Source: Patescibacteria group bacterium
GTDB taxonomy: Bacteria > Patescibacteriota > Patescibacteriia > UBA1558 > GWA2-36-10
NCBI GenBank assembly: GCA_041662585.1
Contig: JBAZSG010000001.1
Location: forward strand, 130,381 to 194,380
Direction of reading: 5' to 3'
DNA length: 64,000 nt
Below are positions 14,027 through 48,708 of this stretch, in pieces; position 1 is the stretch's first letter; each line of letters opens with the position of its first letter. A model generated the notes under the pieces. It was not told where the DNA came from and searched no databases. It saw nothing but the letters and a program-made list of their open reading frames with translations. Position numbers and translations under genes: made by a program.

Positions 14027-14050
14027 ATAATAATTAATTAATTTATATAT

Positions 14051-22295: not shown

Positions 22296-22322
22296 TAATT
22301 AATAAGTCTTAACTAAAAAAGT

Positions 22323-22445
22323 ATGGCCAAACAAAACAAACTTACTTTTCCTTGGTTGATGCTATATATCATGGTAGCATTTGTACTAGTTACTTATGTG
22401 GTATTAGCCACCTGGTATATACAAGGAGCAGGTTGTGTAGCTTAA
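22323..22445 (+). CDS. possible 40-aa hydrophobic micropeptide
   Basis: ORF MAKQNKLTFPWLMLYIMVAFVLVTYVVLATWYIQGAGCVA followed by a clean terminator (22455-22477); no SD, weak support. Confidence 0.25.
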   Translation: MAKQNKLTFPWLMLYIMVAFVLVTYVVLATWYIQGAGCVA

Positions 22446-22454
22446 AACAAAATA

Positions 22455-22478
22455 CCTCGCCTTTAGCGAGGTTTTTTG
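22455..22478 (+). terminator. intrinsic terminator
   Basis: CCTCGC-CTTTA-GCGAGG followed by TTTTTTG. Confidence 0.65.
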
Positions 22479-22532
22479 TTTGACAAACAAATAATATAGT
22501 TATAAAGTTTTGTAAAATCAGTTCTTTAATTC

Positions 22533-22868
22533 ATGGAGGAATTAATGAGTAATAAAAATAAACTTTTGTTTATTGTCATTATTGAATTCTTTCTTGGATT
22601 CATCTTCTGGCCAGCTTTTTGCTTGGCTTTATTCTTTTTTGTAGTCTACCTCAGTGTAGATACAAACAAAAAAAATATAGCTGAAGAAAATGATAAAAAG
22701 CTGTCCTGTTGTCCAAACTGTCAATCTAGACACTATCTAGTATTCCCCCAAAGAAGCAAATTAAGACTGCACAAACTAAGCTTTGTGAGTCACAAAGTAA
22801 CTCTTTTTGAGTGTCTAGACTGTGAAGCTAAATGGTATACATACGAAGTAGACCACTATGCTGAATAA
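22533..22868 (+). CDS. membrane-anchored zinc-ribbon protein (hypothetical)
   Basis: N-terminal TM helix; CCPNCQ...CLDCEAKW paired CxxC motifs; 111 aa. Confidence 0.45.
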   Translation: MEELMSNKNKLLFIVIIEFFLGFIFWPAFCLALFFFVVYLSVDTNKKNIAEENDKKLSCCPNCQSRHYLVFPQRSKLRLHKLSFVSHKVTLFECLDCEAKWYTYEVDHYAE

Positions 22869-22870
22869 AA

Positions 22871-22898
22871 ACGCGATACCAACCGGTATCGCGTTTTT
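22871..22898. terminator. bidirectional intrinsic terminator between convergent genes
   Basis: AAAAACGCGATACC-AACC-GGTATCGCGTTTTT, perfect stem flanked by A and T tracts. Confidence 0.7.
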
Positions 22899-22913
22899 CT
22901 AAATATATATAAT

Positions 22914-23099
22914 TTAACTTAAGCTTCGACGTTGATTGAGAGGATTTTCTATTTCTTCCTCTGGCTTATCTCTAGCCTCTAGAGGTAGCTGTGGATATTT
23001 TTCTTTGTCCAATCCTCCATTATAAAGAATCGGATCCATAATATCTTCTTTGACTTTGGTTTTGGTTTTTTTCTTGGCTTTTTTAAATAATTGAGACAT
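22914..23099 (-). CDS. small basic hypothetical protein
   Basis: 61-aa ORF, Lys-rich N-terminus; convergent with the upstream gene. Confidence 0.3.
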   Translation of the reverse strand: MSQLFKKAKKKTKTKVKEDIMDPILYNGGLDKEKYPQLPLEARDKPEEEIENPLNQRRSLS

Positions 23100-23262
23100 A
23101 TATTTGTATATGAGACATCATAGCAGATAGCAATACTAGTGACAATAGCCCCAAAAATGTTCTAATTGGACAATTGGCTTAAAAGGATTTATAATGTAAT
23201 GACCTTGGGATAGCTAAAAATAGCTCCTGACGAAAATAAAAAGACGAAAATTTGGCAAAGCT

Positions 23263-23296
23263 ACATCTTGTGTGATATAATATTTTTGGACACAAG
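23263..23296 (+). promoter_or_regulatory. candidate nrdJ promoter/operator: extended -10 (TGATATAAT) embedded in a 9-bp perfect inverted repeat ATCTTGTGT...ACACAAGAT
   Basis: Palindrome arms separated by 16 nt containing TGnTATAAT; about 105 nt upstream of the nrdJ start; ACAC/GTGT-rich like NrdR-type boxes but not a consensus match. Confidence 0.3.
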
Positions 23297-23400
23297 ATAT
23301 AGTAAAAAGCGCTAATAATTTTTGTCCTTTTTTTATCTCTCTAGAGTAAAATTAACAAAAAGCCCCCGTTTTTTTGAACGGGCAGTAAAAAATAATCCCC

Positions 23401-26340
23401 ATGCAAGTAAAAGAAATAAAAAAAAGAGATGGCCGAATAGAAAAATTTGACCAATCTAAGCTCATTTCTTCCTTATCTCAAGCAATTATTAGTACTGGTC
23501 TAAAAGACAATCCCATTTCTGGCAAAATGGCTCATCAAGTAATCAAATATTTAGAAGAAAATGACTACAATACTCCCACTATTACTAGTGATGATATACG
23601 TAATGCTGTAAATACAATATTATTGGACAATAACTATACTGAAGTGGCCAAAGCCTATTCCAAAACACGTGGCCAAAAACTAATCAAAGAAAAAGAGTTG
23701 GCTTCTGGTATCAAAAAAATCAAAAAAAGAGACGGCACCATTGTAAACTTTGATAAAGACAAGATTTTTTCGGCTCTATTCAAAGCTGGACAAGCTTCTA
23801 GTGAATACAATAGAGAAGAAGCCCAGCGACTAGCTGATGTAGTGACTGCCATACTAGAACACAAATTTAATGATCATCTTACTCCTGGTGTAGAGCAAAT
23901 CCAAGATATCATTGAAATCATCTTGATTCAATCAAATTGGGCCAAGACTGCCAAACACTTTATCCTCTACAGAGAACAGCGAAAAAAAATCCGTTTAGAG
24001 CAAGGCAAGGATGTTACTTCTGCTGAGGTCAAAAGATTACAAGAAGCTGGTGTAAATCTTTCTAAACAAGCCAAACATATTTTGAACAACTCTACCAATT
24101 TTGATGAATTGGGTAGGATTATTTTTTTGGACCGTTATTCTATCAAAGAAAAGCGAGAAGATATTGCTTTGGGAGATATAGTAATAGCCATTACCAAAGA
24201 AGATAGAAAATATCCCAAAAAAGATCTAGGCATTGTCAAAGAAATACTTGGTGCTGATAAAATAAAGCTGCACATGCTGACTGGTATTTATGCTGAAGAG
24301 GCCAACAATTATGAATTTGAGCAGGAAATATACAAATGCGACAAACCAAAAGAAGCTATTTCTGATGCCCATCGTCGTATTGCTAGGGCCGTCGCCAGTG
24401 TAGAAACTACAGATGAAAATAAAACTAAATATTTTGAAGAATTTTTTGAAGCTTTAAATAAAAAATATATCCAACCAGCTGGACGTATCATGACTGGAGC
24501 AAATATTGACACTCATGGCAACTATACTTCCAATCTGACTCTATTTAACTGCTATGTCTTACCCTCTCCACTAGATTCTAGAAAAGCCATAGTCAAAGAA
24601 TCTCTCCACCAAATGGTAGAGGTAATGAGTCGTGGTGGTGGCGTCGGTATGACTCTATCAGCTTTGCGTCCTCGCTATGCCTATGTCAAAGGAGTCCACG
24701 GTAAATCATCTGGCTCTGTATCTTGGGCTGGATTATTTTCCTATGCTACAGGACTAATAGAACAAGGTGGTTCACGTCGTGGTGCTCTGATGCTCATGCA
24801 ACATGACTGGCATCCTGATGTTATAGAATTTATATCTGCCAAAACAGTGGCTGGTCAAATTGAAAATGCCAATATATCAGTACTCATATCCGATAGTTTT
24901 ATGGAGGCCGTCAAAAACAACGGTGATTGGAACTTGGAATTCCCTGATTATGAAAATCCAGCTTATGCTGATACCTATGACAAACAATGGACAGGTGATA
25001 TGGAAGCTTGGAAAGAGGCTGGCTATCCAACCAAAATATACAAAACTATCAAAGCGCGTGATTTTTGGAACAAGCTCATCACCTCAGCTCATGCTAGTGC
25101 CGAACCAGGTATAGTATTTATGGAGCGCTACAACAAAGAATCAAACTCATATTACTTCAACAAAATCATCTGTACCAATCCTTGTGGTGAACAGGGTCTA
25201 CCAGGTTGGGGAGTCTGTAATCTTGGTCATCTTTATTTAGCTTCTTTTCTAGAAGAAGATGGTCATGATGATTTGGGTCCAACCTATAAAATAAATTGGT
25301 TTGAGCTTCGCAAAGCAGCTCGCACTCTAGCTCGTTTCTTGGACAATGTCATTGATCTGACCCCTTATCACTTCCCAGAAAATGAACTAAATCAAAAAAA
25401 TGAAAGAAGAGTCGGTGGTGGTACTCTAGGACTAGGTGAAATGCTGATAAAATTACGCTTGCGCTACGGTTCAGATGAATCACTAGCTTTTATAGACGAG
25501 CTCTACAAAGCTATATCTTCTGAAATGTATAAAGAATCATCTCGCATTGCCAAAGAAAAAGGCTCTTTTCCAAAGTTTAATGCTGACAAATTCTTGAACT
25601 CTGGCTTTATGAAGAAAATGCCAGAAGATGTGCGTCAAATGATCAGAGAAAATGGTATCCGCAATGTAACTTTGACTACTCAAGCACCAACTGGCACTGT
25701 CGGATCCATGCTATCTACTTCTACTGGTATTGAACCATACTATGCTTTCAAATTTTATCGTCAGTCTAGACTAGGCTTCCATGAAGTGCTCATTCCTCTA
25801 GCTCAAGAATACAAGAGTAATGGTGCTTTACCAGAGTTTTTTGTCTCAGCAATGGAACTAGATCCTCTAGAACACGTCAAAGTGCAAGCGGCTGTCCAAA
25901 AATGGACTGACTCCTCTATTTCCAAAACAGCCAATGCTCCAGCTGACTATACAGTTGAACAAACTGCTCAGCTCTATGAAAAAGCCTACGAACTAGGCTG
26001 TAAAGGTGTAACTATCTATAGAGATTCTTCTCGTGATGAACAAGTACTATCTACTGACTCAAATACCGAAGAAAAAAATCTAGCTTACAATGGCGAACGC
26101 AAGCCAAGTAAACAAGAACAAATCCCTACTTTTAAGGAAGCGGTCAAAGAAGAGATCCCAGAGATGCAAAACCCTCGTCAGCATGCTGGTATAGAGCTCC
26201 CAGAGGACGATGACAAAGAATATGGCACTAGCGTGGGTCAAACCTGCCCTCAGTGCAAAAAGGGCATTATGGTCAAGTTTGGAGGCTGTACAGAGTGTTC
26301 CAAACAATGCGGTATGAAGGGCTCATGTGATATAAGATAA
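23401..26340 (+). CDS. nrdJ: class II (adenosylcobalamin-dependent) ribonucleotide reductase with two N-terminal ATP-cone domains and C-terminal Zn ribbon
   Basis: Two ATP-cone repeats (VKEIKKRDGRIEKFD, IKKIKKRDGTIVNFD), RNR class II catalytic core (PCGEQ, thiyl Cys region), C-terminal CPQCKKG...C...C; 979 aa. Confidence 0.9.
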   Translation: MQVKEIKKRDGRIEKFDQSKLISSLSQAIISTGLKDNPISGKMAHQVIKYLEENDYNTPTITSDDIRNAVNTILLDNNYTEVAKAYSKTRGQKLIKEKELASGIKKIKKRDGTIVNFDKDKIFSALFKAGQASSEYNREEAQRLADVVTAILEHKFNDHLTPGVEQIQDIIEIILIQSNWAKTAKHFILYREQRKKIRLEQGKDVTSAEVKRLQEAGVNLSKQAKHILNNSTNFDELGRIIFLDRYSIKEKREDIALGDIVIAITKEDRKYPKKDLGIVKEILGADKIKLHMLTGIYAEEANNYEFEQEIYKCDKPKEAISDAHRRIARAVASVETTDENKTKYFEEFFEALNKKYIQPAGRIMTGANIDTHGNYTSNLTLFNCYVLPSPLDSRKAIVKESLHQMVEVMSRGGGVGMTLSALRPRYAYVKGVHGKSSGSVSWAGLFSYATGLIEQGGSRRGALMLMQHDWHPDVIEFISAKTVAGQIENANISVLISDSFMEAVKNNGDWNLEFPDYENPAYADTYDKQWTGDMEAWKEAGYPTKIYKTIKARDFWNKLITSAHASAEPGIVFMERYNKESNSYYFNKIICTNPCGEQGLPGWGVCNLGHLYLASFLEEDGHDDLGPTYKINWFELRKAARTLARFLDNVIDLTPYHFPENELNQKNERRVGGGTLGLGEMLIKLRLRYGSDESLAFIDELYKAISSEMYKESSRIAKEKGSFPKFNADKFLNSGFMKKMPEDVRQMIRENGIRNVTLTTQAPTGTVGSMLSTSTGIEPYYAFKFYRQSRLGFHEVLIPLAQEYKSNGALPEFFVSAMELDPLEHVKVQAAVQKWTDSSISKTANAPADYTVEQTAQLYEKAYELGCKGVTIYRDSSRDEQVLSTDSNTEEKNLAYNGERKPSKQEQIPTFKEAVKEEIPEMQNPRQHAGIELPEDDDKEYGTSVGQTCPQCKKGIMVKFGGCTECSKQCGMKGSCDIR

Positions 26341-26349
26341 ATTAAGTAA

Positions 26350-26377
26350 ACGGGAGCTTTTCTAGCTCCCGTTTTTT
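26350..26377 (+). terminator. intrinsic terminator after nrdJ
   Basis: CGGGAGCTTTTCTAGCTCCCG followed by TTTTTT. Confidence 0.7.
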
Positions 26378-26406
26378 AATGTAGTTAATTAGCTTAATAT
26401 AAAAAT

Positions 26407-26928
26407 ATGTACAATTTTTTAAATTTAGATGAAAAAACAAGAGAATTAATGATCTCCGAAATTAACTGGGCAATAAAAAATAATGAACTTTATTACAGTA
26501 CAAGATTTATTGATGGACAAAAAGAAAAATGGCAACAACTATTACTTGAAGCTGCTAAAAATCATAACGAACATTGGCTTGCATTTCAAATAGAGAATAA
26601 CTCTATGCTAAAAGATTTTGAAGAAGCAGAAAAACCAAAAGGTGGTTACACAATTAAACACGTTCCTAATACTGCCTCTGAAACATTAGCAAGCGGACAA
26701 TTTAATAGATATTATATACTTGGTTTAGCTCAAAGAGCTGTTTTAGAGAATAAAAATGCTTTGGAGGTTTATAGAGCAAAAGATAGTCAAGAACAAAGAG
26801 ACGGTTCTGAAGCATTAATCGGACGAACTTTTAATCCCGCCGAATTAATTGAACAACTCCGTACAACTCAAGCTAGTTTTAAATCTGAGTTGGCAAAACC
26901 TAATTCTGGAATAAGTGTAAAATTATAA
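26407..26928 (+). CDS. hypothetical protein
   Basis: 173-aa soluble ORF, no recognisable motif; coding-like composition. Confidence 0.45.
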   Translation: MYNFLNLDEKTRELMISEINWAIKNNELYYSTRFIDGQKEKWQQLLLEAAKNHNEHWLAFQIENNSMLKDFEEAEKPKGGYTIKHVPNTASETLASGQFNRYYILGLAQRAVLENKNALEVYRAKDSQEQRDGSEALIGRTFNPAELIEQLRTTQASFKSELAKPNSGISVKL

Positions 26929-26932
26929 AAAT

Positions 26933-27613
26933 ATGAAAAATGTACAAACAATATTTAGTGATGGAACATCTAGAGTGGTCAATTTACATCAAACTCCAGA
27001 CACATGTCCTTTTTGCCATCATGCAATTGATCCAAATATCCATATGGCATATTGCGATCAATCTAAATGGAATCAAAATAATTGCTTACAAGTTATATAT
27101 CGCTGTACTAAAAATGACTGTCGTAACTTATTTATAGCTTATTATGAAGCTGGTTCTTCTACATGTGCCACTTTTACATATAAAAATTCACGCCCGATGA
27201 ATAAAAAAGGTCGTACATTTACAGACACTGTTTTAAATATTTCTCCAAGCCTTTGTACTATATATAATCAGTCACTTTCTGCTGAACAAGACGGACTTAC
27301 TGAGATTTGTGGTGTTGGATATAGAAAATCTTTAGAATTTTTAATAAAGGACTATCTAATACAAAAACTTCCAGACCAAGAAGAAGCTATCAAAAATAAA
27401 TTTTTAGGTGATTGTATAAAAGATGGTATCGAAAATGACAATATTAAAAATATGGCAAAAAGAGCAGTCTGGTTAGGAAATGATGAGACTCATTATTTAA
27501 AAAAATGGGTTGATAAAGATTTAGAAGATTTAAAAAAATTAATTGATGCTACTATATATTGGATTGAAATGGAAAAATTAGCAGAAGATACTCAACAAGA
27601 TATGCCAGAATAA
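26933..27613 (+). CDS. hypothetical protein with N-terminal treble-clef/zinc-ribbon-like Cys cluster and C-terminal helical domain
   Basis: CPFCHH...C...CTKNDC cysteine/histidine cluster; C-terminal ICGVGYRKSLEFLIKDY...AVWLGNDETHY region of the kind seen in DUF4145-type proteins (from memory, unverified). Confidence 0.45.
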   Translation: MKNVQTIFSDGTSRVVNLHQTPDTCPFCHHAIDPNIHMAYCDQSKWNQNNCLQVIYRCTKNDCRNLFIAYYEAGSSTCATFTYKNSRPMNKKGRTFTDTVLNISPSLCTIYNQSLSAEQDGLTEICGVGYRKSLEFLIKDYLIQKLPDQEEAIKNKFLGDCIKDGIENDNIKNMAKRAVWLGNDETHYLKKWVDKDLEDLKKLIDATIYWIEMEKLAEDTQQDMPE

Positions 27614-27659
27614 TTTAACTATACAAAATTCTAAATAAAAATAACCTTATAACACCCCA

Positions 27660-27686
27660 AGCTCCGCCGTAGGCGGGGCTTTTTTT
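27660..27686 (+). repeat. copy 1 of repeated GC-rich hairpin AGCYCCGCC-GTA-GGCGGGGCT followed by T7 (terminator)
   Basis: 9-bp stem, 3-nt loop, one wobble difference from the other two copies; followed by TTTTTTT. Confidence 0.7.
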
Positions 27687-27688
27687 AT

Positions 27689-27717
27689 TTGTACTTTCCC
27701 CCTCAATACAGTAAAAT
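27689..27717 (+). promoter_or_regulatory. promoter TTGTAC-17-TAAAAT (copy A of a duplicated promoter module)
   Basis: -35-like TTGTAC 27689-27694, 17-nt spacer TTTCCCCCTCAATACAG, -10 TAAAAT 27712-27717; 28 nt upstream of the 27745 ORF. Confidence 0.5.
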
Positions 27718-27744
27718 AATTATATATTAAATAAATATTTTTGA

Positions 27745-28497
27745 ATGCAAAATACCTTTAATCAAGCCTCGGCTATAAAATTAATAAATAAAAATATCGC
27801 CAGCACCAAAGCCAATGGTCAAACTTTTTTGTATATTCCTCAAATAAAAAATAAATTATTAATTACTGCAGGAGTTTTTAATCCCACTTTAACCAATGTA
27901 ACCCCTTTTTTTGCAAAAAATATAAATATCAGATGGAAGGGAGAAAAATTTCTCGACCTATGTACTGGTTCTGGTTTCTTGGCAATCTTAGAGGCTCAAA
28001 AAGGAGCTATTGTTACTGCAAGTGATATTAATAAAAATGCATTAAATTGTGCTAAAAAAAATATTAACCGACTTAAATTAAATAAAAAAATAAAAATTAT
28101 AAAAAGTGACTTATTTTCAGCATTAAAAAATAAACATTTTGATACAATTACAATAAATCCGCCTCTTATCCCTATAAAAGAAGACACCCTAAAACAAAAC
28201 AAAAGCCTCCTCTCAACCAAAAAAAATGTTATCAAAGGATTAAATCAAGCTATGTATGATCCTAATATGACATTACTAAAAAGATTTTTTAATAAAGTAA
28301 ATGAGCATTTAAACAAAAATGGCAGAATATTAATAGTCTATAGCAATTCATCAGAAAAACTAAAATTAAACTCCAAGCCTATTATTAGTATATTGTGTAA
28401 AAAATATCATTTTAAAGAAAAAAAACTTAATAGCCTAATCAAACATGGGGAGAAATATACTATATTTGAAATTTCACGTATGCCATCTACAAAATAA
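27745..28497 (+). CDS. class I SAM-dependent methyltransferase (HemK/PrmC-like small MTase domain, NPPL motif)
   Basis: LDLCTGSGFLAI SAM-binding motif I, acidic residue after beta2 (ASDIN), ITINPPL motif IV; 250 aa. Confidence 0.65.
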   Translation: MQNTFNQASAIKLINKNIASTKANGQTFLYIPQIKNKLLITAGVFNPTLTNVTPFFAKNINIRWKGEKFLDLCTGSGFLAILEAQKGAIVTASDINKNALNCAKKNINRLKLNKKIKIIKSDLFSALKNKHFDTITINPPLIPIKEDTLKQNKSLLSTKKNVIKGLNQAMYDPNMTLLKRFFNKVNEHLNKNGRILIVYSNSSEKLKLNSKPIISILCKKYHFKEKKLNSLIKHGEKYTIFEISRMPSTK

Positions 28498-28528
28498 ATC
28501 CCTCATATTATACATATTCCTATACTCT

Positions 28529-28549
28529 AGCCCCGCCGTAGGCGGGGCT
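28529..28549 (+). repeat. copy 2 of the repeated hairpin AGCCCCGCC-GTA-GGCGGGGCT
   Basis: Identical 21-mer to the copy at 31125; followed by a weak T/A tract. Confidence 0.65.
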
Positions 28550-28661
28550 TTAAAATTAATACGAGAATTGATAAATTTTGATAATTTACATATTCATAAA
28601 AATTGGTTATCCTAGTAGTATATTAATAAAAAAAATAATTTAATTTTTACCCCTCGCAATT

Positions 28662-29105
28662 ATGAAGATAACAATTTGCGGAAGCATAGCATTTTACGAT
28701 GAAATGCTCGACGTAAAGAAAAAATTAGAACAGCTTGGTCATCTGGTTAAATTGCCGCCTTTCGAGGTCAAAGATGAAAATGGCGATATGATTCCTGTGA
28801 AGGAATATTATGCTAAAAGAAAAGCCGAAACGAATGACACTAGTTGGATTTGGGACAGGAAAGAAGAGGCTATGAAGTTGCATTTTGAAAAAGTAACCTG
28901 GAGTGATGTTGTTTTAATTTTAAATTATAATAAAAATAATATTCCAAATTATATAGGTGCCAATACCTTATTAGAAATGGGCCTAGCCTTTCATCTGAAC
29001 AAAAAAATATTTTTACTAAATGATATTCCTGAAATAAATTATAAAGAGGAGCTCCTCGGAATGAAACCAATGGTTATTCACAATGATCTAACAAAAATAA
29101 AATAG
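28662..29105 (+). CDS. nucleoside 2-deoxyribosyltransferase-like / Rcl-like protein (tentative)
   Basis: MKITICGSIAFYDEM N-terminus and about 150-aa size resemble the flavodoxin-like deoxyribosyltransferase/DNPH1 fold; weak, from memory. Confidence 0.35.
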   Translation: MKITICGSIAFYDEMLDVKKKLEQLGHLVKLPPFEVKDENGDMIPVKEYYAKRKAETNDTSWIWDRKEEAMKLHFEKVTWSDVVLILNYNKNNIPNYIGANTLLEMGLAFHLNKKIFLLNDIPEINYKEELLGMKPMVIHNDLTKIK

Positions 29106-29164
29106 GTAAATTTACAAACACAAAATTATATAATAAAAATAAAATTTAAATAACTATATTTAAT

Positions 29165-29482
29165 ATGGAAATAAAAGAATCACAAAAAAAGGTTTATAAA
29201 ATACTCCTAAAAAATGCCAAAAGAGATAATATTAAAATAGATGATGATTACTTATTACTAAAACTCACTGAAGAACTGGGCGAATTCATACAATCATATC
29301 TAATACACAAAAAAAGATGTCGACCAGTAAAATATACAGCGCCCCAAGTATCTAAAAAAGAATTATTCAAAGAATTATCAGATGTTTTGGGATTGGTTTT
29401 GTCAATTGCCGAAAATCTCAATATTAATATTGAAGAAGCTTTAATAAAAAAATGGATTACTAGAGAGTGGATTAAAAATTAA
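29165..29482 (+). CDS. MazG-like nucleotide pyrophosphohydrolase domain protein
   Basis: LKLTEELGEF (E-E-x-G-E motif) characteristic of all-alpha MazG/HisE NTP pyrophosphatases; 105 aa. Confidence 0.5.
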   Translation: MEIKESQKKVYKILLKNAKRDNIKIDDDYLLLKLTEELGEFIQSYLIHKKRCRPVKYTAPQVSKKELFKELSDVLGLVLSIAENLNINIEEALIKKWITREWIKN

Positions 29483-29489
29483 AAATTGG

Positions 29490-29798
29490 CTATAAAGAAG
29501 AACCACCAGATCTTGCAATCCGGTGGTTTTTTATCATGTCCTCTTTTTTTTCTTGAGGCTCTTCTTGTTGAGTTGGTGGTGGCGGTGGATAGTCCTCGTA
29601 TTCATATTCATATGTTGTGGTGGTGAGAAACAAAATCACAATACAATTTATCAAAAAACCACACAAGATACAACGAATCCCAATGGATCTCAAATAGGCT
29701 TTCCTCTCTACCCAGCCGATGATCAAAAGAACAAAGCCACCAATCAACAAGATACTTGCCACAAAAGAAGCGAAAGAAAACAGTATATCTGACAACAT
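29490..29798 (-). CDS. small membrane protein with Tyr/Glu and poly-Pro tail
   Basis: Two TM helices then YEYEYEDYPPPPPTQQEEPQEKK; 102 aa. Confidence 0.4.
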   Translation of the reverse strand: MLSDILFSFASFVASILLIGGFVLLIIGWVERKAYLRSIGIRCILCGFLINCIVILFLTTTTYEYEYEDYPPPPPTQQEEPQEKKEDMIKNHRIARSGGSSL

Positions 29799-29936
29799 TT
29801 GGACTCCTTGTCCTTGGCGGTTAAAAGATCTTTTAATAGTAGATATTATTATATAAAGCTAAGATTGTCAATAAAAAGATGACAAAAATCCAAATAATGC
29901 TAAAATTAAAATAAAGCTATAAATTAAAATAAAATA

Positions 29937-30449
29937 ATGCCCGAACTAAGCCTCTACTTTATCCTCTCCCAAATTGCAGTGACTATTGCCATGGTTTTTG
30001 ATTTTCTGAGCTTTCAATTTAAAAAAAGACAAGCTACTATTTTGTGTTTTATAATTTCCGCTAGTCTGATTAGTACTCATTATTTTTTATTGGGGAAAAC
30101 TGCCGCTGGAGTAATCACATTTTTGTCTGTCGTGAGATTTATCACTTCCTATTTTAGTATTAAGAAAAAATATTTATTTTTATTTATTACTCTAAATACT
30201 TTATCATTATTTTTTACTTACAATAATACTAGTGATTTCATAGTCTATATCGGATCAGTGATATTTATGACTGGCAATTTTCATGCTGACAACAAATCAA
30301 TGCGCAAGCTAATGATGCTAGGAACATCTATATTTATCTTATATAATTTTATTATATTTTCTCCAATGGCCGTAATCATGGAAAGCTCATTTTTGATGAG
30401 TAATTTTATTGGCTATTATAGGCATTATATAAAAACCAAAAAAATATGA
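29937..30449 (+). CDS. multi-TM inner-membrane protein, possible Pnu-type nucleoside transporter (tentative)
   Basis: 170 aa, 5-6 hydrophobic helices; 4-nt overlap (ATGA) with the downstream NUDIX gene suggests an operon. Confidence 0.4.
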   Translation: MPELSLYFILSQIAVTIAMVFDFLSFQFKKRQATILCFIISASLISTHYFLLGKTAAGVITFLSVVRFITSYFSIKKKYLFLFITLNTLSLFFTYNNTSDFIVYIGSVIFMTGNFHADNKSMRKLMMLGTSIFILYNFIIFSPMAVIMESSFLMSNFIGYYRHYIKTKKI

Positions 30450-30850
30450 AAAAACGTAACGTATCAGTAATATTATTATACAACGATAAAAAAGAGGTCC
30501 TCTTACAACACCGTAGCGAAGATTCTCCAACTTTAGCTGGCTATTGGGCTTTTTTTGGTGGTGGCATAGAGGCAGGAGAAAACCCTGAAGAAGCTGTAAA
30601 AAGAGAAACGATAGAAGAACTTAATTATCAATTAAAAGGTCCCCAAAAAGTAATGACTCAAAATTTTATTGGTGAAGTTTATGAAGGAGTAAAATATGTA
30701 TTTATAGAAAAATATGACTCTTCTCAAAAACTTGAGCTACATGAAGGACAGGGTATGAAATGGGTTAAAATTTCTAATACAAAAGAAATGAAAATAATTG
30801 ACCATGATAGAGAAGTCTTAGAATTTGTTGAAAATAATATATTAAAATAA
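30446..30850 (+). CDS. NUDIX hydrolase
   Basis: Nudix box GGGIEAGENPEEAVKRETIEELN. Confidence 0.8.
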   Translation: MKKRNVSVILLYNDKKEVLLQHRSEDSPTLAGYWAFFGGGIEAGENPEEAVKRETIEELNYQLKGPQKVMTQNFIGEVYEGVKYVFIEKYDSSQKLELHEGQGMKWVKISNTKEMKIIDHDREVLEFVENNILK

Positions 30851-30858
30851 ACAAAACT

Positions 30859-31113
30859 ATGAAAAAAAATTTATTACTTCTGGTCTTTCCCTTATTAATA
30901 GGCGCCGGTTGCAATTCTTCTGTAAATTTATCAAATTTAAAATATTGTCAAACAGACAATGACTGTACAATAAAATATAATATTAAATATGAGGGAAATT
31001 GTTCAGCAGGTTGCTTTAACAAAGACGCTAAATCTGACAATAGTTGCAATTTGGTATGGGAAAGCTTTGCACCAAATAAAACCTGTACTTGCAATGACAA
31101 CTTGTGTTCTTAA
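30859..31113 (+). CDS. small Cys-rich lipoprotein
   Basis: Lipobox LLIGAGC, 8 cysteines in 60 mature residues. Confidence 0.5.
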   Translation: MKKNLLLLVFPLLIGAGCNSSVNLSNLKYCQTDNDCTIKYNIKYEGNCSAGCFNKDAKSDNSCNLVWESFAPNKTCTCNDNLCS

Positions 31114-31124
31114 TTGTATCCCCT

Positions 31125-31145
31125 AGCCCCGCCGTAGGCGGGGCT
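31125..31145 (+). repeat. copy 3 of the repeated hairpin AGCCCCGCC-GTA-GGCGGGGCT
   Basis: Identical to copy 2; followed by ATTTTATTT and then a TTGTAC promoter. Confidence 0.65.
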
Positions 31146-31152
31146 ATTTTAT

Positions 31153-31181
31153 TTGTACTTTTTTATTGAATAAAGTAATAT
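31153..31181 (+). promoter_or_regulatory. promoter TTGTAC-17-TAATAT, possibly leaderless transcript
   Basis: -35-like TTGTAC 31153-31158, 17-nt spacer, TAATAT 31176-31181; ORF ATG at 31188 lies only 6 nt after the -10. Confidence 0.4.
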
Positions 31182-31187
31182 GAGTAT

Positions 31188-31586
31188 ATGAAATATCATA
31201 AAAGAGCTGCCGTAATAATAATCAAGGATAACAAAATACTCCTAATGCATAGACTAAAAAATGATAGAGAGTATTATACTATCCCCGGTGGTACACTAGA
31301 AGATGAAGAGACTATCGAGCAAACTGCTATTAGAGAAATAAAAGAAGAGACCGGTCTAGATATCTCTTTGAGTGAATTGCTCTGGGAATACAAAGATGAG
31401 TATCATCATGGTTATTATTTTTTGGCTCAAAATATCAATGGCCAAGTAGAGCTAGGTGGTGAAGAACTAGACAAAAATAATCCACAAAATCATTATGCCC
31501 TAGAGTGGATTGAATTAAAAAATATAAAAAATATATTACTCTATCCTCGCCAAATAGCTGAAAATATCTATAAAAAATTTAAATAA
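31188..31586 (+). CDS. NUDIX hydrolase
   Basis: Nudix box GGTLEDEETIEQTAIREIKEETG. Confidence 0.8.
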   Translation: MKYHKRAAVIIIKDNKILLMHRLKNDREYYTIPGGTLEDEETIEQTAIREIKEETGLDISLSELLWEYKDEYHHGYYFLAQNINGQVELGGEELDKNNPQNHYALEWIELKNIKNILLYPRQIAENIYKKFK

Positions 31587-31593
31587 ATAAAAT

Positions 31594-32250
31594 ATGAACC
31601 ATTTTGAAAATCAACACACTGAGTCTCCAAATACAAAAATAGATGAGCTACTAAAAAAATTGGCTGATTTAGACATTCATCTAGAGCAAGAAACTGCCGA
31701 CACAGAGCAGCTCAGCCCTCAAGAGAGAATAAAATCAATTAAAAATGTTTGGGATGCTATCAAAGCGAAACTAGACAATCCTGAAACAGCTTTGGATGTG
31801 GGCTCTGGTTTTGGCTACGGAACAGTAGTTTTGGATATGGAGGGTATTAAAACCGTTGGGATTGAGAGTGTGCCTATTAAAAATCAACAAGCTGTAGCAT
31901 TGTTTCAAAAAGTTGATATTATTTTACATGAAATAGATGAGATTGATTTTGAAAAATCTCCAGCTATATTGGAAGCTGACTTCAATAAATTGGACGAAAA
32001 AGAAATTGTTGATTTAATCACCATGTTTTATCTAAGTGAAGAATTGGTAAGCAAAGAAAAAACGTTTCAGATGTGTGAACAACTACTCAAAAAAAATGGT
32101 CAGATAGTACTAGCCACTGAAGCTGATAGAGCAACCGTAGAAACTATTATTTCTTCTGGTAATATAAAATTGCCAGCTAATTTTTCTGTTGAAATAATTG
32201 ATCTACCCAATAATTTTGAAAAAACAGTTATAATATTGACCAAAATTTAA
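31594..32250 (+). CDS. putative SAM-dependent methyltransferase-like protein
   Basis: LDVGSGFGYG glycine-rich motif I-like; acidic N-terminal region; 218 aa. Confidence 0.45.
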   Translation: MNHFENQHTESPNTKIDELLKKLADLDIHLEQETADTEQLSPQERIKSIKNVWDAIKAKLDNPETALDVGSGFGYGTVVLDMEGIKTVGIESVPIKNQQAVALFQKVDIILHEIDEIDFEKSPAILEADFNKLDEKEIVDLITMFYLSEELVSKEKTFQMCEQLLKKNGQIVLATEADRATVETIISSGNIKLPANFSVEIIDLPNNFEKTVIILTKI

Positions 32251-32300
32251 ATAGCCAAAAATAAAAAAACGCACTAACTTCCTATGTTTTAAGTGCGTTA

Positions 32301-32540
32301 TTATAATTCCTCTATCAATAGAATCAATTGTCCGTATTCTACGGGCATATCATCTAATAATAGAAATCCGATTATCTTACCATCTATGGGGGACAAGACA
32401 TCGGTATACAAACCCAGGGCTTTAATACGCCCTAAGACTTGGTTTTTTTGTACCTTTCGGCCAATACGAGCCACGACTTCGTCGCTCTGTTCCATTTTGG
32501 CCCAATAAAAAGTACCAACCATTGTTGATCTTATCTCCAC
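32301..32540 (-). CDS. biotin carboxyl carrier protein (AccB) C-terminal-domain homolog lacking the canonical biotinyl-lysine
   Basis: MVGTFY...VGRKV...PVEYGQLILLIEE is collinear with the E. coli AccB biotinyl domain from memory, but the EAMKM position reads KALGL (Lys shifted by -2). Confidence 0.55.
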   Translation of the reverse strand: MEIRSTMVGTFYWAKMEQSDEVVARIGRKVQKNQVLGRIKALGLYTDVLSPIDGKIIGFLLLDDMPVEYGQLILLIEEL

Positions 32541-32670
32541 AATAAACCTCCGAATCTATGATAAATAAATACTAAAATATTATAAAAGTCTTGATTTCTA
32601 TTGCTATTAAAGATCTGGCAAATGACAATACACCATACAATATATTATATATTTAGTCAATTTTAAAAAT

Positions 32671-32699
32671 TTGTACTTTCCAACCCTATACAGTAAAAT
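32671..32699 (+). promoter_or_regulatory. promoter TTGTAC-17-TAAAAT (copy B of the duplicated promoter module)
   Basis: TTGTAC 32671-32676, spacer TTTCCAACCCTATACAG (13/17 identical to copy A), TAAAAT 32694-32699; 25 nt upstream of the 32724 ORF. Confidence 0.5.
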
Positions 32700-32723
32700 A
32701 ACTATATAAATTAAAATTAAGCT

Positions 32724-33539
32724 ATGAAAAAAGAAATCGCCATTATCTATGATGTTGATGGTACTCTAGCCAAAGGCAATCTACCAGAGCAAAAACTCTT
32801 ACCTGATTTAGGAATCAATACTCAAGCCTTTTGGCAAGAAACTGAAAATTTAAAAAAACAAAATGACTCGGATGGCATCCTGGCTTATATGCATCTATTG
32901 GCCAAAAAAGCTGCTGCCAAAAATTTTAAGCTCTCACCAGAAATATTTGCTAAATATGGTTCTGAAATAAAGTTTTTTAAAGGTGTAGATACTTGGTTTA
33001 ATAGAATAAATAAATTTTCAACTGACCAGTATGTTATTAGACATTATATTATCTCCTCTGGCTTACATGAAATGCTAGCCTCTACTTCGATAGCCAAACA
33101 TTTTAAACAAATCTTTGCTTGTAAATATCTTTATGATGAAAATGATTCTATCTTGTCACCAGCTGTCGCTATAAACTACACTACCAAAACTCAATATCTA
33201 TTTCGGATAAACAAAGGTATATTAAATCATTATGATGATAAAGCTTTAAATAAATGGATGGCCACCAAAGATAGACCAGTGCCTTTTTCTAGAATGATTT
33301 ATCTAGGTGATGGAGATACTGATATCCCAGCCATGAAAATGGTCAAAACCAATGGTGGTGCTTCTATTGGTGTTTTTGATCCCGACAAATGGAGTGACAG
33401 CGCTCATCAAGACAAAATATACAAACTAATTTCAGAAGATAGAGTAACTTATGTAGCCCCAGCTGATTATTCCAATAGTTCTCAGCTAGATATTTTGATA
33501 AAAGGTATACTCGGCCGGATAATAAACGAAAATAAATAA
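32724..33539 (+). CDS. HAD-like hydrolase (tentative)
   Basis: IAIIYDVDGTLAKGN DxDGT motif near the N-terminus; GDGDTD motif-IV-like region; 271 aa. Confidence 0.55.
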   Translation: MKKEIAIIYDVDGTLAKGNLPEQKLLPDLGINTQAFWQETENLKKQNDSDGILAYMHLLAKKAAAKNFKLSPEIFAKYGSEIKFFKGVDTWFNRINKFSTDQYVIRHYIISSGLHEMLASTSIAKHFKQIFACKYLYDENDSILSPAVAINYTTKTQYLFRINKGILNHYDDKALNKWMATKDRPVPFSRMIYLGDGDTDIPAMKMVKTNGGASIGVFDPDKWSDSAHQDKIYKLISEDRVTYVAPADYSNSSQLDILIKGILGRIINENK

Positions 33540-33582
33540 TCCATAGATCTTACTTTGGATTATTTAAAATTATTATAATAAA

Positions 33583-34143
33583 TTATTTGAGTAAAGTTGG
33601 TTTTCTAATCGTCCGACCTTGATTGGCTCCAGCAGCTATACCTCCGCCTGAGCCTCCTGCCTGTGTATCAGGACTTGACCAAGGATTTTTCTTTATTGAT
33701 ACAGAGCCTCTGTTTGTCAAAAAATCTGGCAACTCTCGCACCGGACTTGGCTTAATTTCTTCTTTGATGGCGGCTGATCTCTGTTCGGCTTTGCTGGGTT
33801 TTTTTATTGCTACAGCCTTGCTAGCACCCACCTTGCTAAAATGTCTAAAAAGTCTTTCAATAACCTGAATATCTGATGAAGTAAGATTTTGGTCATTTTT
33901 TTTGACTTCTCTGAGCATTTTTTCAGCCATACCACTAGTAACCTCATTACTTCTAATATATTCTTCGTATTTTTTGGCCACAGCACTAAGGGCTTGTTTG
34001 TTGTCCTTTAGACTCTTAAGTGATGGATTTTTTACCACCGAATCAGACAAAGCCCTATTAAAACTACCAGCTTTGTTGCCAGTGCCATAAAATTTATTAC
34101 CCCGAGAAAATCGGCCTTTTATTACATCATCTATCAGACTCAT
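33583..34143 (-). CDS. hypothetical basic protein
   Basis: 186-aa ORF with coding-like composition; Gly-rich C-terminal region; no motif. Confidence 0.4.
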   Translation of the reverse strand: MSLIDDVIKGRFSRGNKFYGTGNKAGSFNRALSDSVVKNPSLKSLKDNKQALSAVAKKYEEYIRSNEVTSGMAEKMLREVKKNDQNLTSSDIQVIERLFRHFSKVGASKAVAIKKPSKAEQRSAAIKEEIKPSPVRELPDFLTNRGSVSIKKNPWSSPDTQAGGSGGGIAAGANQGRTIRKPTLLK

Positions 34144-34287
34144 AATAATTATAATTAATGAATATTATCTATATAATATCATATTTATTTTATTTTTACG
34201 AACCAATAAAAATGCTTAATTAAATGATTTTTGACCAAAAAAGTGAATCAAGGTAAAATTACTTTATAAATTTTAAAATAAAATTTT

Positions 34288-34581
34288 ATGGATAATATTG
34301 AGAAAAAAAAGATAAAAGATTACCTCAATAGCCCTGATACTGAGCTATTGGAAATAGTCTATGATCAATACGATACTCCCAATGCTGATTTGGCCAAATG
34401 GACCCTCAACTATCGTCTTTATGATAATATGGTCCAACTAAATCAGACTATTTTTCAAAATAGCAAAAACACGGCCAAATACAATCGCTATATGCTGTGG
34501 TTAGCAATACTCATGGCGACTATCACATTTTTAAATCTTATGTTGATTATCCGAAGTGCTTTCATTGATTTAAATTTTTAA
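34288..34581 (+). CDS. hypothetical protein with C-terminal TM helix
   Basis: 97 aa; 4 nt separate its stop from the adenosyltransferase start. Confidence 0.4.
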   Translation: MDNIEKKKIKDYLNSPDTELLEIVYDQYDTPNADLAKWTLNYRLYDNMVQLNQTIFQNSKNTAKYNRYMLWLAILMATITFLNLMLIIRSAFIDLNF

Positions 34582-34585
34582 AACA

Positions 34586-35128
34586 ATGACTGTAAATAGT
34601 GGGAAAATACATATCTATACTGGCGATGGCAAGGGCAAAACCACCGCTGCTCTAGGTCTAGCTATTCGGGCTATAGGCAATGGCTTAAAAGTAGGTATTA
34701 TTTATTTTGATAAAGGTGGAAACTATTATGGCGAGCGTAAAATCCTAGACAAACTCAAAGCTGAAGGATTGGAATATATGGCTTTTGGTGAAGCACGCAT
34801 GACTGTGGGCAAAGGTTTTCGCTTTAAAAACAACACTGAAGATTTACAACAAGCTCAACTAGCTGTTGATCAAGCTATCAAATGGATGAAATCAGATTTT
34901 GACTTGCTCATTCTTGATGAAATCAACACTACAGTCAAAACTGGTTTACTAAAACTAGCTACTATCTTACATCTTATTGGCCAAAAACCTGAAAAATTGG
35001 AGCTAGTCTTGACTGGTCGCTATTGCCCTGATAAAGTAATGGAACTCGGCGATCTTATAACAGAAATGAAGCCTATAAAACATTATATAAAAACTGGCTT
35101 GTCCGCTAGAAAAGGTATTGAATTTTAA
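34586..35128 (+). CDS. cobA: ATP:cob(I)alamin adenosyltransferase (CobA/BtuR/CobO family)
   Basis: IHIYTGDGKGKTTAALGLAIRAIGNG P-loop region matches the BtuR family; 180 aa. Confidence 0.85.
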   Translation: MTVNSGKIHIYTGDGKGKTTAALGLAIRAIGNGLKVGIIYFDKGGNYYGERKILDKLKAEGLEYMAFGEARMTVGKGFRFKNNTEDLQQAQLAVDQAIKWMKSDFDLLILDEINTTVKTGLLKLATILHLIGQKPEKLELVLTGRYCPDKVMELGDLITEMKPIKHYIKTGLSARKGIEF

Positions 35129-35174
35129 ATCATTGGGTCATTCCAAATTTGTTTGAAAGATAAAAATAAATATT

Positions 35175-35669
35175 ATGAAAAAACTAGCTATTTTTATTAT
35201 TTTAATACTTATCATTGGAGCTATTTTTTATTTTTGGGAAAAAAATAGTTTTAAAAATGATTGGGAACATAACCCAAAAATACCTCAAGAAGAGAAAAAA
35301 AATAATCTTGGCCAACCTCCTTATGAGACTTACACATACTGGACATTATCATTCCAATTTTCAGAATCTGAAATAGTAGATAATATAAAATTTGAGATGA
35401 AAAAAAGTATTTATGATGATATCAGTGTAAAATCGCCTTTGTCTCTTATCACAGAAGCCGTGGCCAAACAACAAAATTGGGATTTTGAATACGAGGATTA
35501 TGGAAGTATGGGCATACTAGTTACTAAAATTAGAGACAAAAAAAATGGTCAAGATCAAAAATATTGGCAATTTTTTGTAGATGGGGAACAACCACAAATA
35601 TCAGTTGATAAATATTTTCCTCAAAGTGATACTAAAATTCAATGGAAATTTATAGAATCTGAATTATAA
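35175..35669 (+). CDS. membrane-anchored DUF4430-like (transcobalamin-like) putative B12-binding protein (tentative)
   Basis: N-terminal TM helix, then soluble domain ending ...YWQFFVDGEQP...DTKIQWKFIE, resembling the DUF4430 C-terminal pattern as I recall it. Confidence 0.4.
   Translation: MKKLAIFIILILIIGAIFYFWEKNSFKNDWEHNPKIPQEEKKNNLGQPPYETYTYWTLSFQFSESEIVDNIKFEMKKSIYDDISVKSPLSLITEAVAKQQNWDFEYEDYGSMGILVTKIRDKKNGQDQKYWQFFVDGEQPQISVDKYFPQSDTKIQWKFIESEL

Positions 35670-45597: not shown

Positions 45598-48708
<3,111 letters not shown>

Follow-up and report, generated by a model that had tools for sequence, protein, structure and literature searches.

A variable interval between nrdJ and cobA in a Patescibacteria genome and its nucleotide-acting cargo genes

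The stretch of DNA analysed here (the window, 64 kb, G+C ~35%) carries nrdJ, which encodes a B12-dependent ribonucleotide reductase, and, 8.2 kb further on, cobA, the first gene of a vitamin B12 module. The interval between them holds 13 cargo genes (26407-33539), for which about seven transcription units are counted, several of them bi- or tricistronic. This nrdJ-cobA interval is a flexible genomic island, that is, a chromosomal hotspot with conserved flanks, variable cargo, and empty sites. We consider it fairly likely that the window contains the local version of a hypervariable hotspot which splits an ancestral nrdJ-cobA pair in Ca. Komeilibacteria and allied bacteria of the candidate phyla radiation (CPR), and whose cassettes are biased towards nucleotide house-cleaning and salvage. 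The slot draws on a lineage-wide pool of small, self-contained cassettes of one to three genes, many of which have at their boundaries a GC-rich putative terminator hairpin with a conserved promoter-like module fused to it, and close relatives differ by gain, loss, and reordering of cassettes. The window belongs to a metagenomic contig of 702 kb (ENA ERZ27249449, k141_305749). The best NrdJ matches among genome records are metagenome-assembled genomes (MAGs) of Ca. Komeilibacteria (85-87% identity) and, because these are the nearest records, the window organism is, as judged by this protein, a CPR/Patescibacteria bacterium.

The nrdJ-cobA interval and its versions in related genomes

Relatives are represented by metagenomic contigs from Ca. 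Komeilibacteria and allies, which provide about 15 versions of the island (designated by L numbers); those of L004, L098, L099, L102-L105, L108, L112, L113, and L116 are partial. The distance from nrdJ to cobA is ~0 kb in L005, 1.6 kb in L111, 1.7 kb in L106, 2.2 kb in L107, 5.3 kb in L115, 8.2 kb in the window, 9.2 kb in L109, and 14.1 kb in L084. In L005, cobA begins one base after nrdJ and is followed by DUF4430, DUF6580, and pilT as in the window, and this adjacency of nrdJ and cobA is probably the ancestral state. The interval of L106 holds only the two border genes listed below. The original prediction had taken the segment for an accessory one, as opposed to perfectly conserved core synteny, and intervals of 0-14 kb with differing cargos bear this out. 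L005 (CAZWYP010000004.1) is titled "uncultured Gammaproteobacteria" yet shows the CPR-type synteny nrdJ-cobA-DUF4430-DUF6580-pilT, and its bin is probably mislabelled.

The flanks and borders of the interval in the window are:

23401-26340, plus strand: nrdJ, class II (B12-dependent) ribonucleotide reductase with two ATP-cone stretches (Pfam Ribonuc_red_lgC, 1.7e-110); conserved left flank.
26348-26374, no strand given: nrdJ terminator hairpin, called by a terminator scan; left border of the variable interval.
33583-34143, minus strand: conserved protein of 186 aa with no assigned function, recognized by its homologues in relatives; right border of the variable interval.
34288-34581, plus strand: conserved membrane-anchored protein of 97 aa, ending 4 nt 5' of cobA.
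34586-35128, plus strand: cobA, ATP:corrinoid adenosyltransferase (PF02572, 7.9e-55), first gene of the B12 module; conserved right flank.

The nrdJ of the window is 85-87% identical to those of L004, L084, and L106 and 68% identical to that of L005, and a homologous hairpin is also found 3' of nrdJ in L084. On the right, the 186-aa minus-strand gene and the 97-aa gene form a semi-conserved border. Homologues of the former occur in L004, L084, L098, L099, L102-L104, L106-L109, L113, and L116, and it is absent from L005; the latter is 66-85% identical in most relatives that bear the island. The B12 module itself consists of cobA, DUF4430, and DUF6580. Neither a cobalamin riboswitch nor any other Rfam element was found near nrdJ and this module at permissive thresholds (22300-35200), and an E-value scan with Rfam over 22.3-35.2 kb yielded a single match at chance level, outside the island.

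The cargo between these borders consists of the following 13 genes:

26407-26928, plus strand: ORF1 (open reading frame 1), 173 aa, phage-associated family (phrog_30545, 4e-30, full length); first gene of a bicistronic unit.
26933-27613, plus strand: ORF2, 226 aa, with an N-terminal Cys/His zinc-ribbon-like motif and DUF4145 (phrog_1305, 3e-37); begins 4 nt 3' of ORF1.
27745-28497, plus strand: S-adenosylmethionine (SAM) methyltransferase, 250 aa, MTS/HemK-like, with an NPPL motif (Pfam MTS, 2.1e-19).
28662-29105, plus strand: protein of 147 aa with the fold of nucleoside deoxyribosyltransferases (NDT) and DNPH1 (Rcl), predicted N-glycosidase or deoxyribosyltransferase (AlphaFold, Foldseek).
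29165-29482, plus strand: MazG-like all-alpha NTP pyrophosphohydrolase, 105 aa (Pfam MazG; YpjD in PDB).
29490-29798, minus strand: putative small two-helix membrane protein, 102 aa, an ORF divergent from the YgjV gene and uncalled in the source annotation.
29937-30449, plus strand: YgjV-family membrane protein with seven helices (PF10688, 2.5e-35).
30446-30850, plus strand: NUDIX hydrolase 1 (NUDIX1), 134 aa (PF00293, 3e-18).
30859-31113, plus strand: Cys-rich small secreted or lipoprotein-like protein, 84 aa, an ORF with a signal-peptide-like N-terminus; begins 8 nt 3' of NUDIX1.
31188-31586, plus strand: NUDIX hydrolase 2 (NUDIX2), 132 aa, semi-core island gene (PF00293, 2.4e-18).
31594-32250, plus strand: SAM methyltransferase-like protein, 218 aa (Methyltransf_23, 7.6e-9); begins 7 nt 3' of NUDIX2.
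32301-32540, minus strand: small biotin/lipoyl-domain-like protein, 79 aa (PF00364, 1.1e-5, over the cut-off), with its own putative terminator at ~32268-32300.
32724-33539, plus strand: HAD-superfamily phosphatase, 271 aa, semi-core island gene (PADLOC PDC-S34; motifs).

All-against-all BLASTP reveals that the island versions share their cargo as a mosaic. NUDIX2 and HAD are common to the window, L084, L098, and L099, and HAD orthologues occur in L102 and L109 as well; for NUDIX2, the orthologues of L084, L098, and L099 show 61-65% identity. YgjV is found in the islands of the window and L084 (70% identity), the 218-aa methyltransferase in the window, L004 (64%), and L109 (69%), a 2-Hacid_dh gene and another NUDIX gene in L084 and L109, and Fic in L004 and L109. 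Also the order of the shared genes varies, being HAD-NUDIX2 in L099, NUDIX2-HAD in L098, HAD-YgjV-NUDIX2 in L084, and YgjV-NUDIX1-secreted protein-NUDIX2-methyltransferase-(biotin/lipoyl-like, minus strand)-HAD in the window. No orthologues of NUDIX1, ORF1, ORF2, the 250-aa methyltransferase, the NDT-fold protein, or the MazG-like protein were found in the other island versions compared. The 102-aa minus-strand ORF is 32% identical to a stretch of L084 (7361-7642, E 1.3e-7), and the biotin/lipoyl-like protein has a 42% identical orthologue beside the HAD gene of L102 (819-1064). In these last two genomes, window and L102, the biotin/lipoyl-like gene is kept divergently upstream of the HAD gene, and the context of its lysine, IKALG, differs from the canonical biotinylation motif.

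Island and flanks do not differ in G+C (p = 0.12) or in G+C at third codon positions (GC3, p = 0.76); a foreign composition was rejected, and this native composition fits exchange within the lineage. As no recombinase is encoded in the interval, cassettes are probably exchanged by homologous or illegitimate recombination with DNA of related cells, for which the conserved flanks would serve as anchors: nrdJ to the left and, to the right, the 186-aa and 97-aa genes together with cobA.

Terminator-like hairpins and promoter-like modules at cassette junctions

Two kinds of short elements recur at the junctions of the cargo genes; they were called by consensus scans and their functions as terminators and promoters are putative. 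The hairpin GC(C/T)CCGCCGTAGGCGGGGC (= GCCCCGCCGTAGGCGGGGC) occurs three times (at 27661, 28530, and 31126), and so does the promoter-like module P1, ATTTGTACTTT-N8-ATACAGTAAAATAA (at 27687, 31151, and 32669), with 0 copies expected by chance in either case. No further copies of hairpin or P1 exist within the window, and the shared hairpin and promoter module of the original prediction are confirmed with three copies each. The individual elements are:

27659-27681, plus strand: putative terminator hairpin, copy 1, with a 10-bp GC stem, a GTA loop, and a T-run.
27687-27719, plus strand: P1, copy 1, TTGTAC-17 nt-TAAAAT, fused to the T-run of the hairpin (nhmmer composite, 2.5e-16); putative promoter.
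28529-28549, plus strand: putative terminator hairpin, copy 2, with a poor T-run.
28575-28627, plus strand: second promoter-like module, P2, AATAATTTACATATTCATAAAAATTGGTTATCCTAGTAGTATAT, before the NDT-fold gene (nhmmer match in the window, 1.8e-17).
29501-29528, no strand given: hairpin with a T-run 3' of the MazG-like gene, overlapping the 3' end of the 102-aa minus-strand ORF.
31124-31146, plus strand: putative terminator hairpin, copy 3.
31151-31183, plus strand: P1, copy 2, before NUDIX2.
32669-32701, plus strand: P1, copy 3, without a hairpin.

At two junctions of the window hairpin and P1 are fused, the T-run leading straight into ATTTGTAC, followed by 17 nt and then TAAAAT or TAATAT. 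Composites of hairpin and P1 are present as two full copies in the window, two in L004, one in L098, and a partial one in L102. Their flanks are kept across relatives (TAGCC...GGCTATTTT-ATTTGT), and the inner stems differ yet stay complementary. P2 is found nearly unchanged in L084, before 2-Hacid_dh and before Inositol_P, and in L109, as a full copy before GrpB and a partial copy before 2-Hacid_dh, and the hairpin behind the MazG-like gene has a homologue in L084 (7379-7410). Which gene a module precedes differs from genome to genome. An nhmmer search covered 373 kb of related loci, and all significant module matches lie inside the nrdJ-cobA interval; the scan comprised 64 kb of this genome and ~310 kb of relatives' loci, and in the latter no junction module was found outside the interval at E < 0.02, nor was there an exact match in viral contigs. 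Promoter and terminator types used throughout the genome would be expected elsewhere in the 64-kb window or outside the interval in the ~310 kb of relatives' loci, where none was seen, and this explanation of the modules was discarded.

As far as can be judged from their sequences, the modules would make the cassettes self-sufficient in expression and insulate them from their neighbours. Because 6 nt separate the end of the -10-like hexamer from the ATG of NUDIX2 in both the window (31176-31190) and L098 (~495-511), the NUDIX2 mRNA is probably leaderless.

Conservation of the modules might also reflect constraint on operators rather than mobility, if they mark a regulon governed by a dedicated transcription factor or an alternative sigma factor. 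Upstream of five different genes, in three genomes, P2 keeps a near-identical sequence over ~50 nt, which far exceeds the needs of a sigma-70 promoter, and the P1 subtypes have TTTGT-N17-AGTAAnAT in common. However, no regulator is encoded in the interval, and no copy of the modules was detected ahead of nrdJ, UMPH-1, HD, or other genes of the window outside the island. We regard such a regulon as quite improbable, and it would be compatible with the hotspot explanation rather than exclusive of it.

With palindromic repeats at the ends of small cassettes that lie mostly on the same strand, the interval also recalls a site-specific, integron-like cassette array; alternatively, two cargo genes, ORF1 and ORF2, match PHROG families over their full length, as might be expected for the remnant of a prophage or mobile element with its own nucleotide-metabolism module. 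Cassettes with MazG and acetyltransferase genes are known from Vibrio integrons. Against both possibilities, no integrase, transposase, or phage structural gene was found in any of the ~15 island versions, no tRNA gene flanks the interval, and the composition is native, as described above. The hairpins have GC stems of 7-10 bp, loops of 3-7 nt, and T-runs, without the R''/L''/L'/R' layout or GTTRRRY, and the cassettes carry promoter-like modules of their own. Viral contigs contain no relative of HAD, only distant relatives of the NDT-fold protein (27-33% identity), and none of the junction modules. An integron was rejected for lack of an IntI integrase, attI, and attC architecture in the interval and the island versions, and a prophage or viral origin for lack of integrase, structural, and packaging genes and of close homologues in viral contigs. 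Together, these origins are the least probable of the explanations considered and we give them very little credence.

Nucleotide-acting and other cargo genes

Across the ~15 island versions, the cargo is dominated by families that act on nucleotides. NUDIX proteins are encoded in the window, L084 (four), L098, L099 (two), L109, and L115, and MazG-like proteins in the window, L111 (two, directly 3' of nrdJ), and L113. To these are added thymidylate-kinase-like proteins (L098, L004), a dCMP/cytidine deaminase (L113), an HD protein (L004), CYTH, His_Phos_1, and AIRS proteins (L098), an AAA_33 kinase (L107), an IMP-cyclohydrolase-like protein (L099), AdoHcy-hydrolase-like proteins (L084, L099), and an Inositol_P protein (L084). 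A strict NUDIX-box pattern is matched by 8 of the 114 ORFs that lie in the interval, compared with 0 of the 265 that lie outside it (Fisher p = 6e-5), a count that is inflated by orthologues. In lineages whose NrdJ is only 68-71% identical, MazG or NUDIX genes are also situated at the nrdJ-cobA spot, and their recurrence in these deeper lineages argues for selection for placement by nrdJ, beyond a neutral hotspot. Since salvage lacks proofreading, the integrity of the nucleotide pool rests on NUDIX and all-alpha NTP pyrophosphatases (PMC12887539).

The presence of two NUDIX genes, a MazG-like gene, an NDT/Rcl-like gene, two SAM methyltransferase genes, and a HAD gene had been proposed from the letters of the DNA, and is supported by profile, motif, and fold searches. 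That list left out the ORF1-ORF2 pair, the minus-strand ORF at 29490-29798, and the genes at 30859-31113 and 32301-32540 (minus strand), and its "short single-gene units" hold only roughly, given some seven transcription units for 13 genes. The coupling of a membrane protein to the first NUDIX gene stands, as the two genes overlap by 4 nt (ATGA), while the description of that protein as Pnu-like is unsupported. Finally, a segment "devoted to" nucleotide sanitation and salvage is an overstatement for the window, where 4 of the 13 genes are clearly nucleotide-directed and HAD lacks a demonstrated nucleotide link, and yet the theme as such recurs across island versions.

The AlphaFold model of the 147-aa NDT-fold protein, built from 42 homologues (pLDDT 95), has an NDT-type flavodoxin-like fold, and Foldseek comparison of the model with PDB returns as best matches the CMP N-glycosidase BcmB, NDTs, human DNPH1, and YtoQ (entries 4jen, 6evs, 2a0k, 7m5h, and 1s2l in addition to DNPH1 and YtoQ; probability ~1.0, E 1e-4 to 1e-2, TM ~0.5-0.6). 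The Pfam NDT model PF05014 gives 15.3 bits at a cut-off of 28.8, and phmmer finds no match in PDB. In the motif NTxxExG, residues N101, T102, E105, and G107 are invariant in the 42 homologues, and the glutamate expected as the nucleophile would reside in this motif (xTxxxExG), with catalysis predicted from the sequence. Its profile segment tllElGlA was aligned to VMVELGMA, the catalytic stretch of the NDT 8pqp, in a match that is not significant (E 1.8). The family, which is without a Pfam or NCBIfam model, comprises 899 homologues, the best 120 of which are 70-86% identical and come from several CPR phyla and DPANN archaea (Nanoarchaeota). To judge by these sequences, conservation across domains is unusually strong for an uncharacterised protein.

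For the MazG-like protein of 105 aa, the score with PF03819 (21.8 bits) falls short of the cut-off of 22 by 0.2 bit. Weak phmmer matches in PDB are B. subtilis YpjD (2gta, 8e-4), a further nucleotide pyrophosphohydrolase (5ie9, 2e-3), and DCTPP1/RS21-C6 (~0.02), the metal-binding motifs TEELGEF (EExxE, EExGE) and KELSDVL (ExxD) align with those of YpjD, and a PHROG MazG-like family is matched as well.

Both NUDIX proteins score far above the gathering cut-off of PF00293 (66.6 bits for NUDIX1 and 66.8 bits for NUDIX2 versus 21.1). Compared with the NUDIX box GX5EX7REUXEEXGU and its catalytic REx2EE, the box of NUDIX2 is canonical (GGTLEDEETIEQTAIREIKEETGL); that of NUDIX1 keeps REx2EE and has N in place of the final G. 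NUDIX1 most resembles MutT-like proteins in NCBIfam, under the cut-off. The best score of a NUDIX protein with the equivalog for MutT, the 8-oxo-dGTPase, is 52.9 bits, whereas 97.9 bits are required, and all other equivalogs are under their cut-offs too.

HAD possesses motif I (DxDxT) as DVDGT and motif IV (GDxxxD) as GDGDTD, and with Pfam it scores 25.3 at a cut-off of 27. It is a full-length match to the PDC-S34 profiles of PADLOC (2.1e-106, 3.5e-95, and 2e-87), a family whose defence function is that of a candidate, and has more than 7600 homologues across phyla. The genes neighbouring distant PDC-S34 homologues are unrelated and uninformative, and nothing was found on PDC-S34 by name in the literature searched. 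In 4 of 6 island versions HAD adjoins a NUDIX gene, which suggests a relay from pyrophosphatase to phosphatase.

The YgjV protein covers positions 1-156 of the 159 of PF10688 (122.1 bits versus a cut-off of 23.5), and its AlphaFold model (pLDDT 82) contains seven helices, a layout that would be compatible with a 3+1+3 architecture. There is no match to PnuC (PF04973) in Pfam, and PDB profile and Foldseek searches yield neither PnuC nor SWEET nor any other PDB relative; no internal repeat was detected. For the YgjV family, the literature searched offers no characterised function. YgjV and NUDIX do not form a conserved pair, for YgjV of L084 is coupled to the NUDIX2 orthologue and in one Falkowbacteria genome YgjV follows thrS without a NUDIX gene. 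YgjV is 63-79% identical across CPR phyla and Woesearchaeota, and identities within the two families, NDT-fold and YgjV, span 63-86% when CPR phyla and DPANN archaea are compared. In other CPR bacteria their genes are situated in core contexts, beside topA and the gene for phosphoribosyl pyrophosphate synthetase or after thrS. Because of this high conservation and of the core contexts elsewhere, the two genes look like housekeeping or salvage genes rather than defence genes.

Taken in sequence, these activities might form a strain-variable route of clean-up and salvage that would feed or protect the substrate pool of the reductase, and this is the mechanism we favour. In it, NUDIX and MazG-type enzymes would first turn (deoxy)nucleoside triphosphates that are non-canonical or in surplus, or NDP-X compounds, into monophosphates, and the HAD phosphatase would strip off the phosphate to give nucleosides; the NDT/DNPH1-fold enzyme could then cleave or swap the base, and YgjV may move a product or precursor across the membrane. 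A route of this kind would suit an organism that presumably subsists on scavenged nucleic acids and needs a clean pool of substrates for its reductase. Some cassettes, a minority, are of the conflict type or have no assigned role, such as the DUF4145 pair in the window and Fic/SoFic and a viperin-like pair in relatives.

Less can be said about the remaining cargo. The 250-aa methyltransferase matches HemK, PrmC, and PRK14968 models of NCBIfam, all under their cut-offs, and the Cys-rich protein of 84 aa has no match to a Pfam family. ORF1 is matched by neither Pfam, NCBIfam, nor PADLOC searches, and tblastn finds one phage match, in an Erwinia jumbo phage (32% identity). The DUF4145 match of ORF2 (5e-4) is under the Pfam cut-off, and only three relatives of ORF2 occur in viral contigs, two of them full-length at 40% identity.

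Several findings weigh against an island of mainly nucleotide-metabolic cassettes, and some of them favour one serving chiefly phage defence, in which nucleotide enzymes deplete or modify nucleotides upon infection and are accompanied by single-gene defence candidates and genes of the abortive-infection type. In the window, clearly nucleotide-directed cargo amounts to only 4 of 13 genes; the NUDIX-box events are not independent, because their count includes orthologues. HAD is a PDC-S34 protein over its full length (2e-106) and the NUDIX proteins match PDC-S07 (8e-19, 8e-15). In L004, the closest named Komeilibacteria MAG, a SoFic gene (13034-14272; PADLOC 8e-117, full length) is the first cassette after nrdJ, and the Fic gene at the hotspot of L109 is 44% identical to it. 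The pair of a thymidylate-kinase-like (VakA-like, 5e-14) and a radical SAM protein (pVip-like, 1e-13) in L098 adds a weak likeness. ORF2 is typical of prophage accessory modules: its homologues are found between repressor and integrase in lysogeny modules of Streptococcus prophages and, in Aeribacillus phage AP45, beside the genes for a NERD nuclease and HicAB. Fast turnover between close relatives is likewise typical of defence islands. As to the modules, their promoter and terminator activity is predicted by consensus scans, and their specificity to the island would apply to the 64 kb examined here plus the ~310 kb of relatives' loci; furthermore, synteny breakpoints also fall at tight gene junctions free of modules, and the modules are therefore not the sole substrate of recombination.

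PDC families are defined by their embedding in BREX, DISARM, and type I restriction-modification loci (bioRxiv 10.1101/2024.01.29.577857) and are candidates, and matches to PDC-S07 and pVip may reflect generic likeness among NUDIX or radical SAM proteins. The PADLOC search found no validated defence system in the window. The NDT-fold and YgjV proteins, with their conservation across phyla and their core contexts elsewhere, are unlike fast-evolving defence genes, much of what the relatives carry is evidently metabolic (2-Hacid_dh, flavin reductase, Na/H antiporter, GT2, and PhzF), and the nucleotide theme recurs beside nrdJ in deeper lineages. A defence or phage alternative had been raised by the original prediction, and part of it stands, in the form of the DUF4145 pair, SoFic in L004, and the viperin-like pair in L098, whereas nothing pointed to a prophage, and viral contigs yielded no close homologues. 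On balance, we deem it rather unlikely that defence is the chief function, and to us the island is a mixed one in which nucleotide-metabolic cassettes form the majority. In L098 (5019-7117), the thymidylate-kinase-like (VakA-like, PDC-M51B), radical SAM, and CYTH genes stand side by side and may be a viperin-type nucleotide-modifying module.

Some features elsewhere in the window deserve mention. A UMPH-1 nucleotidase gene and an HD gene, placed earlier at 17.6-19.1 kb, are borne out by precomputed Pfam matches. The HD gene (18449-19099), beside UMPH-1, is missing from L004, in which the orthologues of UMPH-1 and DUF2207 adjoin, and it represents a second small insertion of accessory DNA that carries a nucleotide-type gene. 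A SAM riboswitch (RF00162, 55 bits) lies at 41485-41590, 3' of a tRNA cluster. The 23S rRNA gene (45600-48709, minus strand) matches over 3110 nt compared with a model of 2925 nt and may hold an insertion or intron; a 5S rRNA gene adjoins it, and a 16S gene was not found in the window.

Significance and comparison with known systems

The prevailing view that CPR bacteria subsist on nucleic-acid building blocks of other cells raises the question of how a purely salvaged nucleotide pool stays clean. Here, house-cleaning enzymes are strain-variable accessory cargo right beside the reductase that makes deoxynucleoside triphosphates (dNTPs). Two features of the hotspot are unusual, namely, that a theme of nucleotide house-cleaning is tied to nrdJ across many island versions, and that the terminator-promoter modules are confined to the island in the sequence scanned and are reused before unrelated genes within and between genomes. 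A CPR hotspot with portable modules of this kind and no recombinase bears on gene exchange in reduced genomes. Candidates for testing are the two NUDIX proteins, the MazG-type protein, the NDT/DNPH1-fold family, the PDC-S34 HAD, and YgjV, the best targets being the NDT-fold family that lacks a Pfam model, YgjV, and the PDC-S34 HAD with its NUDIX partner. Families listed as defence candidates, such as PDC-S34, may have roles in nucleotide metabolism, or the reverse may apply.

One might go further and envisage a recombinase-free platform for cassette exchange that is specific to these ultra-small symbionts, in which the modules would double as expression signals and as homology patches after DNA uptake, and in which the cargo would be tuned in each strain to detoxify modified or damaged nucleotides scavenged from host or phage DNA. 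We consider this extension unlikely; if true, it would amount to a variable nucleotide-sanitation system coupled to ribonucleotide reduction.

Among known systems, defence islands resemble the hotspot in that HAD is a full-length PDC-S34 protein, the NUDIX proteins are similar to PDC-S07, a relative carries SoFic, and genes turn over at a high rate. In contrast to such islands, the window is without a validated system and many cassettes are metabolic or of a conserved housekeeping type. The sedentary chromosomal integrons of Vibrio consist of small, mostly co-oriented cassettes with repeated palindromic elements, and their cargo includes house-cleaning-type enzymes. Small co-oriented cassettes, palindromic repeats between them, and house-cleaning-type enzymes are found here too, but IntI, attI, and attC are absent, the hairpins are short terminator-like stems, and the cassettes have promoter-like modules of their own.

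As in the PnuC/NadR uptake systems, a small multi-helix membrane protein, with seven helices in its model, is translationally coupled to a nucleotide-acting enzyme. It differs from them in that it belongs to the YgjV family (PF10688), is not matched by PnuC, and is not kept coupled to NUDIX in other CPR bacteria. With the house-cleaning enzymes NUDIX/MutT, MazG/DCTPP1, and DNPH1(Rcl)/NDT, the cargo shares the superfamilies, intact catalytic motifs, and a location beside a reductase that produces dNTPs. In contrast to these fixed genes, the cassettes are strain-variable, and none reaches an equivalog-level cut-off of NCBIfam.

The closest analogue is an exchange site that works without a recombinase, for instance the "minimal mobile elements" known from Neisseria, which are exchanged by transformation and homologous recombination. 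Like these elements and flexible islands in general, the nrdJ-cobA hotspot has a fixed slot with empty, small, and large states, a mosaic pool of cargo, and no mobility genes. It differs from them by its location in a CPR genome of ~0.7 Mb, where a functionally coupled nrdJ-B12 pair is split, and, compared with flexible islands, by a cargo strongly biased to nucleotide-acting enzymes and by terminator-promoter modules that recur at its cassette boundaries.

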